Virus record (IMG/VR): IMGVR_UViG_3300025437_000009
Source of the DNA: a virus
Lineage: Duplodnaviria; Caudoviricetes
Strand: one strand, 5' to 3'
DNA: 64,000 nucleotides
In this document: in pieces, positions 35,763 to 40,976 of the stretch
Numbering within the stretch: the first letter of the stretch is position 1
How the letters are laid out: the number at the start of each line of letters is the position of its first letter
Notes under the pieces: model-generated
What the model saw: the letters and a program-made list of their open reading frames with translations, nothing else
Database searches by the model: none
What the model was told of the DNA's origin: nothing
Translations under genes and position numbers: made by a program

Positions 35763-38423
35763 TTATTCGAACGTAAACAAATCGTCAAAGGTTGTTTTAA
35801 TATCTGTACTTTCAGCAATACGCCACTCTAGTACACCCAACAAGTTTTCTACCTTTTGATCTACAATAGTTGATTCCATAGTTGAATCATCAAATGGTAA
35901 CTCTTTAAACCACGCAGGAATATGTGTTTCATCTGTGGGATAGCCTACACTAGTAAGTCCCAGTGGATTATCCTTTAGCTTACATACAATAGTTTTCATA
36001 CCATCAACAATGGCAGTACTATAGTTGTCGCCATGCATCTTTTTAAGACGATTCCAGTTCATTGCAGCACGAACGTGTCCTGGCATGTTAGCTTTGCCTA
36101 GACGTTCTTCTTCTGCCGTATATTTTGTTAAGTTATTAACACGTTTAGGTGTGCCTTTTTCCCAAGCTGGTCGATCAGCAAATTTAAGTTTAAACTCGCG
36201 AACCTTTTCAATAACACTTTCCTGCGTTGCGCCGGTTAATACGTCCATTAACAAATCACTTAAGAAGTCCTGCACTACCTTAGGAGTATCTGAACGCTTA
36301 AGGTCTAAGCCCATGGCCTTCATCTTACCTGGCTTGCCGTGTGTGTCTAAGCGCACACCTTCCATGTCGTAGATTAGTACACCATAGCGTTTCTTCTTGA
36401 TGAATAGTCCCTTTGATGCAACCATTTCACGACCGCCTTTGATGATTGAACCCATCTCTCTAGGGCAATGGCAAGCACGTTCCATAAACCCTGGGAAGCT
36501 ATCATTTACTGAATCGGCAATGGTATCATATAACTGTACACAGATTTCTCTGTTCCACTCCATGCGTCCTGATTCTACTTCCTCTTTGATTTGCGGCCAG
36601 GCTGAGAAATAGACCGAGTCCGTGTCTCCGTATATGACCGCTTTACCCACGTGGTCGTACTCACCGGTGATAGCTTCGTTGACATGCGAGTCCATGTGTT
36701 TGGCAATGATACGACCCGTAAGTGTCGTACTTTGGCCAATGCGCTGGTCAAAGAAGCGACAGCCCGGATTGAGGATCGCCCCGTAAAGCGAGTTGAGGTT
36801 AATTTTTTTGACAAGTTGCCTTTTGTCCCAGAACGCTGTGTCTTCCGGAGTTTCTGCGGCTTTCTTTTTAGCTTGCATTTCTTTTCGTTCAGCATACCAT
36901 CTCTCCAATAATCCAGGAATAATACCTTTCATATCATATTTAAATATTGTTCCGTTAGCACTGAATGTCCAAGGTTGATTACTATCAAATACCAATCGCC
37001 ACACATCTGCGGCTGACATTACATCACTGGAACCATCTTCCCAGTCTATGGTAATCTCTGTGCCTTGGTCCATGTTCATCACTGCTTGATACTCTAAGCT
37101 ACCAAACATGTTTTCCCAAGCATCAGCAAAACTACTACCACTGGCCATCTTTTCCTTGATGTAGTGATCAGTCATTACCGGACGTAACTGTCCTACGATT
37201 GTTTCTGGACCCATGTTAAGAGCACGGATCGCTGATGGGTAGAGCGAGTTGATGTCAATGGCGCCGATGTATTCGTGCATACCTTTTTTGGGATAAGCAA
37301 CATAGGCACCTGCGGCTTGCGTGTTTCCTTGGTCATCTCTAGATCTCCTGTTAGGCACAACCATGTTACGGCTGTGTGCTTCATTAATAATAGCTTGTTC
37401 GGTTACGGCTACAGCACCCATAGTTGTTTGTAGCAATACTGTATTATCATGTGCAAGTTCATTGGCCAAGTCTAAGAAACGTAATTTCTTATCTAGTTTG
37501 GCCAACAACATAGTATCTTGACGATTATAGTCAATGAACTTAGGAAAATCTCGATTGTATAGTTGATCTAGGGTACCATCGTATGCAACCTTAGATCCAA
37601 CTTCTTCATATTCGCCAATAGCGTCTAATGAATAGCTATGGCGTTCTTCATAGGTATACTTACGATACAGTTGCATGTAATCTAAGTGTACCCGACCCAA
37701 CAAATCAAATGTTAAGTTTTCTGCTCCAAAACGTTCGAATGTACGTTGCTTGGGCATCTGTCCCCATAGGCATAGTCTACGTGTGTCATCTTTTGATAGC
37801 ACACGAGTAATACGCATAACGGTATATGGGATATCAAAACCTTCACTATTCCAACCTGACAAAATATCTGCGTCTTGGATTAAGTCTAGGAACGTGTTGA
37901 GCATGTCTTCTTCACGTTCAAACAAGTAACAGTCTGTGAACTGATTGCAAATTTCTTGTGCGGTTTCCCATGAATAGCTCTTAGGCGGAACTACTAAGGT
38001 AACTAACTTATCCATCCAGTCTAGATAAACTGATATGCTAGTAATAGGATTAAATGGATCTTCAGGTTTAGAGTAGCCACGTACTGGATCAAAGTCGACC
38101 TCAATGTCGAAAAAGGCTGTTTGTAGTTTGGGGGAATCTACACCTAAGTAATTTTCTTCTAGACAACGGAAAATGGGATTAATATCTGATTCCCAAAGGC
38201 CTTTACCAGAATTAATACGTAGTTCTTTGTGGAATTCTTTTGAGTTGCGTGTAGCAAAACGTGTTACAGGCGTGTCAAAAATAGTGCGGAACTTACCGCG
38301 AGGGTCATCGTAATAGAATACATAGTTAGCTGGATATTCGCGATATACACGTTCTCCATTTACACGTTCTACTACATGAATGCGATCTTTGTCGCGATCA
38401 AATAATGCGTCAATATAACTCAT
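35763..38423 (-). CDS. polB: Family B DNA polymerase with 3'-5' exonuclease
   Basis: FDIEV, WNSEGFD, YNRQD, DINSLYPS, KINLNSLYG, YGDTDS, KKRY; no intein. Confidence 0.97.
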   Translation of the reverse strand: MSYIDALFDRDKDRIHVVERVNGERVYREYPANYVFYYDDPRGKFRTIFDTPVTRFATRNSKEFHKELRINSGKGLWESDINPIFRCLEENYLGVDSPKLQTAFFDIEVDFDPVRGYSKPEDPFNPITSISVYLDWMDKLVTLVVPPKSYSWETAQEICNQFTDCYLFEREEDMLNTFLDLIQDADILSGWNSEGFDIPYTVMRITRVLSKDDTRRLCLWGQMPKQRTFERFGAENLTFDLLGRVHLDYMQLYRKYTYEERHSYSLDAIGEYEEVGSKVAYDGTLDQLYNRDFPKFIDYNRQDTMLLAKLDKKLRFLDLANELAHDNTVLLQTTMGAVAVTEQAIINEAHSRNMVVPNRRSRDDQGNTQAAGAYVAYPKKGMHEYIGAIDINSLYPSAIRALNMGPETIVGQLRPVMTDHYIKEKMASGSSFADAWENMFGSLEYQAVMNMDQGTEITIDWEDGSSDVMSAADVWRLVFDSNQPWTFSANGTIFKYDMKGIIPGLLERWYAERKEMQAKKKAAETPEDTAFWDKRQLVKKINLNSLYGAILNPGCRFFDQRIGQSTTLTGRIIAKHMDSHVNEAITGEYDHVGKAVIYGDTDSVYFSAWPQIKEEVESGRMEWNREICVQLYDTIADSVNDSFPGFMERACHCPREMGSIIKGGREMVASKGLFIKKKRYGVLIYDMEGVRLDTHGKPGKMKAMGLDLKRSDTPKVVQDFLSDLLMDVLTGATQESVIEKVREFKLKFADRPAWEKGTPKRVNNLTKYTAEEERLGKANMPGHVRAAMNWNRLKKMHGDNYSTAIVDGMKTIVCKLKDNPLGLTSVGYPTDETHIPAWFKELPFDDSTMESTIVDQKVENLLGVLEWRIAESTDIKTTFDDLFTFE

Positions 38424-39184: not shown

Positions 39185-39455
39185 CTAGGCCCACGCTGTC
39201 TATAGTTACTAAGAAAGCATAGTTAGCCAGTAGGCCAAAGCTACCGCGTGTATAACAGGTCCAGGCCGCGGCACAACACCCACTGATAAAAATTGAGTAT
39301 AACGGAATAACTGGAACTGTGGGAACAGTAGCAGCAAAAATAATAGCACTGATAACGCTACAGGCCCAGCTGAATAACTCAGCGCAGAAACGCAGGGGAT
39401 ATTCCCGAAAGTCTCTGCGTATATATTCAATAGTTCCGTTAAAGATTTCTATCAA
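39162..39455 (-). CDS. Small multi-pass membrane protein
   Basis: Three hydrophobic segments. Confidence 0.7.
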   Translation of the reverse strand: MIEIFNGTIEYIRRDFREYPLRFCAELFSWACSVISAIIFAATVPTVPVIPLYSIFISGCCAAAWTCYTRGSFGLLANYAFLVTIDSVGLARMLLSH

Positions 39456-39712
39456 AGTGTTTTACCTACTGTTTCGAGAATTGTATTCAATTCATCGTGG
39501 TCTTGATTAGTTTCACCTAGCTTAGATTTTTGTGCAATCTTAATAGCTTTTTTAAGAATAGCTGGTTTGATTTCCATTTCTTCAGCAATGGCTTTTACTG
39601 TATCGTTAAGTCCTGCATTAAGGTCTTCAATTTCTTGAAGTACTGCCATACCTTCGTTGATAATTTGAGTTAGTTTTAGTTTTTGCTCATTGCTAAACAT
39701 ACGTGCTGACAT
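39452..39712 (-). CDS. T4 DsbA/GapR-like dsDNA-binding protein
   Basis: IEDLNAGLNDTVKAIAEEMEIKPAILKKAIK pattern. Confidence 0.65.
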   Translation of the reverse strand: MSARMFSNEQKLKLTQIINEGMAVLQEIEDLNAGLNDTVKAIAEEMEIKPAILKKAIKIAQKSKLGETNQDHDELNTILETVGKTL

Positions 39713-39736: not shown

Positions 39737-39765
39737 ATTATACAGTATTTAATTGTGTAGAGCAA
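39737..39765 (-). promoter_or_regulatory. Dual promoter: sigma70 plus TAAATA in the spacer
   Basis: TTGCTC-17-TATAAT; TAAATA at 39751-39746. Confidence 0.65.
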
Positions 39766-39782
39766 GAGACTTTTAGAAAAAT

Positions 39783-39877
39783 TGCTCACTTTAGAAAGTT
39801 TCGGGCACGACTCCGAAATGGTTCCAGGCCAGCAGCCGGCCACACCGCCGTTACAAGTAACGGGTCCTAAGGGTGTT
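39783..39877 (-). ncRNA. Candidate structured RNA (four-way junction)
   Basis: GC-rich intergenic segment with three hairpins (39848-39863, 39827-39841, 39799-39818) enclosed by CAC..TTAG/CTAA..GTG; strand inferred from the local transcription direction. Confidence 0.55.
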
Positions 39878-39882
39878 TGGTT

Positions 39883-40845
39883 TTATTTTGGTCTTCTTTG
39901 TGTGTAGTCATCCAATGACGAATAAAATTGTGGATCTTTTGCTGTTTGCGGCCAGGTGTTGGTTTTTTGTAAATTACGGTGAGCTGCGTATGAATAAACA
40001 TCCTTTGCAATATTGACATACTGTTGTAAAGTTAAATTGCTTTTTCCTTTGTTAATAATCCAAAGAACCCAAACAACATTTCCTGGTTTATATCCGCCGC
40101 CTGGGTTGATTTGATCAGGACTAGGGCTAGTCCACTCGCCGGCAGCTTTCAAAAACCCTTTTCCTATACTGGCACCAAACGGCAAACCACTGTAAGCACA
40201 ACGTTCCTGCTGTAAGTCGTGAAAAATATACCAGGCTTGCTCGATATCAAATTCTATTCCAGCTTTTTGACGTCCTAACATTCCTTGAATACTTTGTGCC
40301 CAATACTGATGCACGGTACTGTTTGGGTTAAACCCTTTACTTACAATTGATGTAATTTGCTGGTCCCATACCTGTGATGTTGGAATCCTAACAGGTTCCG
40401 TTGCTCCAGGTAACAAACTAGCTACATTTGAAGGGGGCACTTTAGTTGACGCCAACAAAACTTTTTTTAATGTTGAAATATTTCCTAAGACATGTTCGCA
40501 AAGACTTATAAAACTTGCCTGCGGCATATTCATTTTTACTGAATTTACACACCAACGAACAAACTGCACATTGTTGGCGGTATATCCAGCTGCAGGATTG
40601 ATTTGATCGGCACTGATCATGTCCCAGTTGCCGGCTCTCTCAAAACTAAATGGTTTACCTGTTAGAGCACACACTTGGCCTTGTCTTTGGAATATTGCCC
40701 AGGCTTCTTCTAACGACATTTGTGCTTTTTTGCGAAGGGTTGATCGCCAGAAATTTACAAACTGCACGTGTATAGGGTTGTTTGCATCGTACCCAGCAGT
40801 TCTGGCGGTATATGGATTGGCTTCGACAATTTCAAACGTTTTCAT
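39883..40845 (-). CDS. Tandem HNH-like domain protein with capsid-targeting-like N-terminus
   Basis: Two repeats: CALTG..SADQINP..GY..NVQFVRWCVN..K and CAYSG..SPDQINP..GY..NVVWVLWIIN..K; N-terminus MKTFEIVE. Confidence 0.7.
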   Translation of the reverse strand: MKTFEIVEANPYTARTAGYDANNPIHVQFVNFWRSTLRKKAQMSLEEAWAIFQRQGQVCALTGKPFSFERAGNWDMISADQINPAAGYTANNVQFVRWCVNSVKMNMPQASFISLCEHVLGNISTLKKVLLASTKVPPSNVASLLPGATEPVRIPTSQVWDQQITSIVSKGFNPNSTVHQYWAQSIQGMLGRQKAGIEFDIEQAWYIFHDLQQERCAYSGLPFGASIGKGFLKAAGEWTSPSPDQINPGGGYKPGNVVWVLWIINKGKSNLTLQQYVNIAKDVYSYAAHRNLQKTNTWPQTAKDPQFYSSLDDYTQRRPK

Positions 40846-40976
40846 ACTGGTTTCTTATAAATACCTAGTGCGGTAACAGTACAGCGTGATGCATCAAAGA
40901 ACCCGAGGATTTCCTGTACTTCCCCTCTGGGCAACAACGAATTGGCAGACGAGCTTTGTAGTGCATCGCCGCACAC

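Follow-up and report, generated by a model that had tools for sequence, protein, structure and literature searches.

A GC-rich intergenic stretch of the phage genome analysed here belongs to a large new family of pseudoknotted RNAs with over 200 members, which comparison of related contigs supports well and which has a relative in at least one cultured phage. The least variable exposed bases of this RNA are exactly complementary to helix 69 of the 23S rRNA, so the RNA probably pairs with host ribosomes; we put the probability that it is a scaffolded antisense RNA pairing with host 23S rRNA at about 0.5.

The element lies at positions 39783–39876 (to about 39878) on the minus strand of the window, by which we mean the whole 64,000-nt stretch of DNA, and is approximately 95 nt long. 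It is bounded on this strand by an HNH/EndoVII-like gene upstream and a DsbA-like gene downstream. The sequence and coordinates given in an initial annotation of the stretch were correct, as was its description of a GC-rich intergenic region, because the element forms a GC island of 49–53% between flanks of about 30%. The same annotation had assigned the RNA to no known class, and a search with Rfam 15, which it had proposed, agreed: there was no match at the gathering score and none on the element at E ≤ 10, and the copy at locus L005 likewise matched no family (E ≤ 10). Among the covariance models without a match on the element were those of ribozymes, riboswitches, HEARO and omega RNAs, group I introns, and sRNAs. 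ARAGORN predicted no tRNA or tmRNA gene in the window, in line with the reported misfit to a tRNA cloverleaf, and there is no terminator-like site at the element, which had been described as having no U tract. An intrinsic terminator was rejected on the same ground: no U run directly follows a GC hairpin, and in many copies the tail is followed by AAUAAUUCC-type sequence. We also rejected a guide RNA of a neighboring nuclease of the HEARO/IscB or TnpB type, because the genes upstream of the element come from at least 10 ORF families and this nuclease occurs there in the lineage of the window only. Literature searches by sequence words and by topic retrieved no paper on such an RNA. The text of a catalogue of more than 10,000 phage RNA candidates does not mention 23S, which leaves room for an unnamed entry among its single motifs (PMC10690425).

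Homologues, which the initial annotation had suggested looking for by BLAST and covariation, were present in related phage contigs, and with covariation. Using the DsbA-like protein as the query, we collected 80 IMG/VR loci, about 26 of which contained the element at 70–80% identity by BLAST, and a pattern derived from two conserved blocks retrieved at least 119 further contigs with one copy in each. A covariance model of the element (R1), run on the DsbA-anchored sources, detected it in 64 of 81, always on the gene strand and always as a single copy. In the window, the sole R1 match was at 39780–39877 (78.4 bits, E = 1e-12); a second copy was looked for within the window and none was found. 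Exactly one copy was present in each of five large contigs, including a 354-kb contig that is 98% complete. Altogether, homologues were found in well over 200 IMG/VR phage contigs with one copy per genome; judged by these sequence matches, the element is conserved in hundreds of uncultured giant phages and is single in each genome. It is missing from about 15 related loci with enough upstream sequence and is thus facultative or dispensable. In three cultured phages (Phosso, Atu_ph07, and PA5oct), R1 gave no match upstream of the DsbA-like gene. A BLAST search of the region against cultured phages matched only the DsbA-like gene of PA5oct relatives, a search with a sister-clade copy gave no meaningful match, and the exact block CCTTAGGACC was not present in KVP40, T4, nt-1, or Phosso. 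A scan of bacterial genomes gave three matches, of which two were MAG contigs that are probably phage and the third, in Salinimicrobium, was a chance match inside a coding frame (17.5 bits); we therefore recognized no cellular homologue.

Folded as a single sequence, the element had a minimum free energy of −28.2 kcal/mol against a shuffle mean of −28.3 kcal/mol (z = 0.03), and neither strand folded better than its shuffles. The minimum-energy fold of the window copy looks like the structure drawn in the initial annotation and has the same stability as those of the shuffles. Because the single-sequence fold is at chance level, the case for a structure rests on comparison with relatives, which gave the helices P1, P2, and P3 and a pseudoknot (Table 1). 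All seven P1 pairs of the model showed double changes (for example ACACU/AGUGU, ACCCU/AGGGU, and AUUCAC/GUGAAU), and P1 closes a loop that holds the invariant CCUUAGGAC(C) and an optional hairpin, P1b, which is missing in L019, L041, and L044. The 4-bp stem of P2 was 99.5% and 99.3% paired in two alignments, and G-C/C-G swaps occurred at three of its four pairs, in 22–28 sequences. P3 is long and variable and is reduced to a 3-bp mini-hairpin in L021 and L045; all six pairs of its lower stem covary, and its tip GGAGUCGUGCC is invariant in the clade of the window, while sister clades have GAUUCGCUACC in its place. Bases 2–7 of the P2 loop form a 6-bp pseudoknot with AGU(G)AGC of the tail, and the strands of this pseudoknot enclose P3. 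In independent lineages the two sides changed in concert, the loop/tail combinations including GACUACU/AGUAGU, GGCCACU/AGUGGU, UGCCGCU/AGCGGC, GGUUACU/AGUAAC, GUUCCCC/GGGGAC, and GGGUGCU/AGUGACC. In the last of these, C:G is replaced with G:C: in the second alignment, this pseudoknot pair (48:126) was C:G in 59 sequences, G:C in 11 distinct ones, and never mismatched.

Table 1. Components of the RNA element and neighboring features in the window
Feature	Position	Strand	Remarks
P1, 5' strand (ACACC)	39872–39876	−	pairs with 39842–39846
P1, 3' strand (GGUGU)	39842–39846	−	pairs with ACACC
Invariant loop block CCUUAGGACC	39863–39872	−	antisense to 23S rRNA 1921–1930
P1b hairpin (CCGUUA-CUUG-UAACGG)	39848–39863	−	optional, variable
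P2 hairpin	39827–39841	−	stem 39838–39841 with 39827–39830; 7-nt loop GGCUGCU at 39831–39837
P3 hairpin	39794–39825	−	lower stem GGAA/UUUC, upper stem UUUCGG/CCGAAA, tip GG-A-GU-CGU-GC-CC
3' tail UAAAGUGAGCA	39783–39793	−	39784–39790 pair with P2 loop 39831–39836, G39787 bulged
Putative sigma70-type promoter of DsbA-like gene	39737–39765	−	−35 TTGCTC at 39760–39765, 17-nt spacer, TG-extended −10 TATAAT at 39737–39742
86-aa DsbA-like DNA-binding protein gene	39452–39712	−	phrog_12534 (8.7e-19), phrog_639; syntenic anchor of the element
Tandem HNH/EndoVII-like gene P0001 (320 aa)	39883–40845	−	phrog_3322, phrog_1035; directly upstream of the element
886-aa ORF	35763–38423		DsbA-like gene lies upstream of it; taken as DNA polymerase by synteny with cultured relatives

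Over the whole model, 90.9% of the cells were paired in the DsbA-anchored alignment, against 36–42% for slid partners, and 90.1% against 32–39% in the second alignment, whose members had been chosen only by two loop blocks and hence independently of P2, the pseudoknot, and the tail; since the model served to fit both alignments, these values are somewhat biased in its favor. Double changes occurred in 21 of 26 pairs in the former and in 20 of 26 in the latter, the covariation scores were 0.46 and 0.40 compared with 0.10 or less for slid partners, and none of 500 shuffles reached the observed pairing or covariation values. The same compensatory changes were seen in raw MAFFT alignments. Between the compensatorily changing stems, the alignments contained four invariant blocks (CCUUAGGAC, GGCUGCU, GGAGUCGUGCC, and AAAGUGAGCA), and approximately 35 bases in the loops and the tail are invariant. 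Since G.U cells outnumbered A.C cells in the helices (98 vs. 22), the folded strand is the gene strand. Taking these results together, we regard it as next to certain that the element is a conserved, structured noncoding RNA of no catalogued class.

The comparison changed the architecture that had been proposed from the single sequence. The three hairpins of that proposal are real and conserved: CCGUUA/UAACGG corresponds to the optional P1b, GGCC/GGCC to P2, and UUUCGG/CCGAAA to the upper part of P3, and covariation is seen in P2 and P3. The closing stem CAC-CC-UUAG/CUAA-A-GUG had to be abandoned, because its 5' half is invariant (CCUUAGG) while its partner varies freely (CUAA, CGAA, AAAA, or UUAA). 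ACACC pairs instead with GGUGU in P1, and GUG of the tail takes part in the pseudoknot with the P2 loop. The four-way junction was accordingly replaced with P1, P2, P3, and the pseudoknot, which have covariation support.

We checked complementarity to rRNA on the actual E. coli rrnH operon. In the invariant loop block, CCTTAGGAC is the exact reverse complement of E. coli 23S rRNA 1922–1930, and the exact 10-nt complement of the block, GGTCCTAAGG, is present on the plus strand of the window. Positions 1–8 of the block were unchanged in 125–129 of 129 copies that had been picked without regard to it. At positions where a wobble is possible, 8 substitutions kept the wobble and 2 were disruptive, counted as sequences and not as independent events, and 1 of 516 cells was changed at the positions without a wobble option. 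With lineage-specific flanks, the exact runs to 23S rRNA reached 12–15 nt in most copies, all within 1917–1933, while the window copy had a run of 10 nt and its longest run to any rRNA, 11 nt, was to 16S rRNA. In a longest-run test with mononucleotide shuffles, P was 0.087 for the window copy and 0.02 to <0.001 for other copies. Gapped antisense alignments running through P1b to 23S 1907–1933 scored 25–36 against a shuffle mean of about 20 (sd about 2); for the window copy, P1b and the loop block scored 28 against 23S 1907–1930, compared with a shuffle mean of 20.3, and 1 of 200 shuffles scored as high. The duplex energy of the whole molecule with rRNA (−53.4 kcal/mol) was no better than that of shuffles (mean −53.1 kcal/mol).

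Among 155 distinct copies, complementarity was 96–98% at nine of the ten positions of 23S 1921–1930 and 83% at 1922, 47–79% over most of 1908–1919 with 38% at 1915, and 37–60% at 1931–1933, and it did not exceed 10% from 1934 onward or up to 1903. As read from these aligned copies, the footprint of complementarity is helix 69 and the junction towards helix 70 (about 1907–1933). The 21-nt target is identical in E. coli and one Bacteroidota isolate. The P2 hairpin CCGGCUGCUGG is also complementary to an rRNA, namely 16S rRNA 517–527 in the helix of the 530 loop. We treated this match as incidental because its invariant core is 9 nt, a length expected about 1.6 times by chance, and because it is lost in variants that keep the pseudoknot. 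The P3 tip (39803–39815, minus strand) shares AGUCGU, in the sense direction, with what we take to be 16S rRNA 1493–1498 of helix 44; a match of 6 nt is not significant.

A second block bears on the same region of the 23S rRNA. In sister clades, UUCGCUACC within the P3 tip GAUUCGCUACC is complementary to 23S 1929–1937, the stretch adjoining the target of the loop block. The tip GGAGUCGUGCC of the window clade has no rRNA complement within two mismatches, so the window copy lacks the second block. The two blocks occurred together at the right spacing in at least 120 contigs, compared with 4 for a control with the second block reversed, and R1 assigned 76 of 100 two-block loci to the scaffold of the element. 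Both blocks are also present in the cultured Pseudomonas phage PA5oct (MK797984.1), in a 136-nt gap at 115474–115609 (L213:1500–1635). There, CCCUUAGGACCG and GAUUCGCUACC stand right after the stop codon of EST35_0189 and are followed by an intrinsic terminator; they are complementary to 23S 1920–1930 and 1929–1937, respectively, and in the predicted fold the first block is masked against CUUAAGG. This gap is not among the four published ncRNAs of PA5oct (PMC7318152). A few loci (L297, L222, and L303) carry the same two 23S-antisense blocks on a different scaffold, without P2 or the pseudoknot; here a terminator hairpin with a U run behind it carries the second block in its loop, and a GATAAATA motif is located just upstream. 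From this arrangement, the RNA of these loci looks like a stand-alone late sRNA.

We propose that the pseudoknotted body of the element serves as a rigid scaffold that keeps a seed of 7–10 nt, CCUUAGGAC, unpaired. The RNA would be produced within read-through transcripts of the upstream late genes, the seed would pair with 23S rRNA 1921–1930, and from there the RNA may invade helix 69; its substrate would be either the free 50S subunit or 23S rRNA that is still being made. In the mature ribosome, 23S 1920–1924 is part of the helix 69 duplex, so the RNA could pair there only by invading the strand or by meeting rRNA that is still immature. Since this helix makes up intersubunit bridge B2a, pairing would tether large subunits to phage mRNA or withdraw them from subunit joining. 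A synthetic PNA against helix 69 blocks translation and the growth of E. coli (Kulik et al., 2017, as cited in PMC12828698), which indicates that the site is reachable by antisense; the PNA has the same target helix and is an artificial oligomer, whereas the phage element is a natural RNA. The selective benefit is not obvious because the phage itself needs ribosomes, and the short 23S run of the window copy, the dispensability of the element, the lack of an rRNA match in the P3 tip of the window, the whole-molecule duplex energy at the level of shuffles, and the base pairing within part of the mature target also count against pairing. We consider it slightly short of an even chance that giant phages have a dedicated pseudoknot-scaffolded RNA which pairs with 23S helix 69 and captures, tethers, or silences large subunits.

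In its proposed action, the element resembles CopA/CopT of plasmid R1 and RNA I/RNA II of ColE1, which are loop-presenting antisense RNAs. As in these systems, a folded scaffold would expose a short unpaired seed to a structured target hairpin, and seed pairing could extend into a longer duplex. Unlike in these systems, where an mRNA or primer encoded in cis is the target, the presumed target here is a host rRNA, the pairing with it is a prediction, and a pseudoknot provides the scaffold. The element can also be compared with rRNA-guide RNAs, the snoRNAs of eukaryotes and the C/D box sRNAs of archaea (PMC6009581), since it shares with them an exact complementarity of 10–15 nt to a universally conserved, functionally central part of the rRNA. 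It differs from them in having no C/D or H/ACA boxes and an unrelated fold, and we know of no partner RNP of the rRNA-guide type in bacteria or phages.

The genomic position of the element suggests a different explanation. The element is located at a plastic gene boundary, behind the stop codon of an upstream gene, ahead of an early-type promoter, and near the DNA polymerase gene. Its upstream neighbors belong to at least 10 ORF families, and in most loci their stop codon is a few bases from P1. Across the relatives we found neither a promoter nor a terminator that is conserved and belongs to the element itself, so the simplest reading is that the element is part of read-through transcripts of the upstream genes, and the description of the RNA as stand-alone in the initial annotation was not supported. 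The tail is followed in order by a sigma70-type promoter (TTGC.., 17 nt, TATAAT), an SD sequence, and the ATG of the DsbA-like gene. The hexamers and spacing of the promoter are kept across relatives while the spacer sequence is variable, and we infer that 39737–39765 functions as a sigma70-type promoter. Because this conserved promoter lies between them, the element is not the early leader of the DsbA-like gene, and the earlier remark that a leader role is not required holds. We rejected a 5' leader or operator of the DsbA-like gene for this reason and because 0.6–2 kb of accessory genes separate the element from the promoter in at least 13 loci. The inserts in this gap encode radical SAM proteins, a fatty-acid desaturase, ferredoxin-like and Asn-synthase-like proteins, and one NUMOD3 homing endonuclease (L026:535–2088, L030:913–2967, L039:1291–1998, L041:2311–2955, L048:1793–2923, and L002:709–1440), and several of the insert ORFs start 8–30 nt after the RNA tail without an obvious SD sequence. 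In the window, the gene directly upstream, P0001, is a lineage-specific insert that is absent at the same place in L005-type loci; it encodes a tandem His-Me (HNH/EndoVII-like) protein whose N-terminus (MKTFEIVEA...) is of the T4-like capsid-targeting type. Another conserved element, about 115 nt long (element B), is present at 40856–40976 on the plus strand of the window and at L005:2703–2830. A perfect T4-type late promoter, TATAAATA (40856–40863), stands before it, and its match to the Rhizobiales sRNA Atu_At1 (RF02496) stays below the gathering score of 60, reaching 37 bits for the window copy and 45.5 bits for that of L005. Element B adjoins the 5' end of the pseudoknot RNA in L005-type phages, while the HNH gene stands in between in the window, and its complement to rRNA is no more than expected by chance.

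With this layout, the element could be a cis-acting gene-boundary structure whose knot terminates the late transcript from upstream, protects it, or acts as an insulator of the early promoter, and which also serves as a conserved crossover point for swaps of accessory genes, the rRNA complementarity being incidental. The order of stop codon, structure, sigma70-type early promoter, SD, ATG, and next gene is that described for the PeSL (promoter-early stem-loop) cassettes of T4-type phages, which are many dispersed, simple G/C stem-loops and terminators (Arbiol et al., 2010; PMC2839356). The element is likewise at a plastic spot of accessory-gene exchange near polymerase and internal-protein loci, with diverse accessory genes right behind it in the loci with inserts and varying genes upstream. 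Unlike the PeSL repeats, which are many in a genome, it is a pseudoknotted RNA of about 95 nt with invariant loops, present once in each of the five large contigs and in the window, and it has no U tract. A simple hairpin would suffice for such a boundary, yet some 35 loop and tail bases are invariant, and the occurrence of two blocks that track adjacent 23S stretches on two scaffolds would be left unexplained. We consider a gene-boundary role with incidental rRNA complementarity unlikely.

The invariant bases of the loop, tip, and tail could instead be contacts for a phage or host protein for which the RNA is a docking site or operator, the alternative P3 tips co-evolving with the partner protein. 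Invariant unpaired bases on covarying stems and the existence of several discrete types of P3 tip (GGAGUCGUGCC, GAUUCGCUACC, and UACGCCAG) would suit this explanation, as would a likeness to the pseudoknot operator of the T4 gene 32 mRNA, which also lies about 67 nt upstream of a start codon in the T4-type replication region and is mentioned in PMC10690425. In contrast to that operator, the element has a promoter between the knot and the gene and is often 0.6–2 kb of inserts away from it, and that gene codes for a protein other than gp32. With this promoter behind it, the element cannot be the operator of the next gene on early mRNA; no protein gene co-varies with it in presence, the neighbors differing on both sides, and the wobble-preserving substitutions in the loop are those expected for RNA pairing. 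We regard protein docking as improbable.

Phage gene boundaries often hold ribozymes, and the size of the element, its pseudoknot, and its conserved unpaired bases are typical of self-cleaving ribozymes or ligand-sensing aptamers, a new one of which could process or gate late-early read-through. We think this quite improbable, since the search at E ≤ 10 brought up no Rfam ribozyme or riboswitch, no expression platform is present, and P3 tolerates both an exchange of its tip and a reduction to a 3-bp mini-hairpin. Even less probable is a DNA-level, rDNA-like target site for homing endonucleases with the RNA structure being secondary: a nuclease gene abuts the element in the window, as the NUMOD3 homing endonuclease does in L002, and TAACGGTCCTAAGGTAG overlaps the I-CeuI site of the 23S rDNA, but the neighboring inserts are mostly accessory genes and not endonucleases, uninterrupted similarity to rDNA usually extends over 12–13 bp and nowhere over more than 17 bp, and the strand-specific G.U and compensatory changes point to selection on a folded single strand.

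Even if the proposed pairing with helix 69 proves false, the element represents a new structured RNA family with a clear pseudoknot, and its relative in a cultured phage makes bench tests possible. No natural bacterial or phage RNA is known to us to act antisense on mature or nascent rRNA, and host takeover through such an RNA-rRNA contact was described in none of the papers we found and in no Rfam family. If the pairing is true, the element would be, as far as we know, the first natural antisense RNA of bacteria or phages on rRNA and would provide a naturally validated antisense site on the ribosome. It would also mean that phages control or recruit ribosomes by direct RNA-rRNA contact at the bridge where the subunits join.
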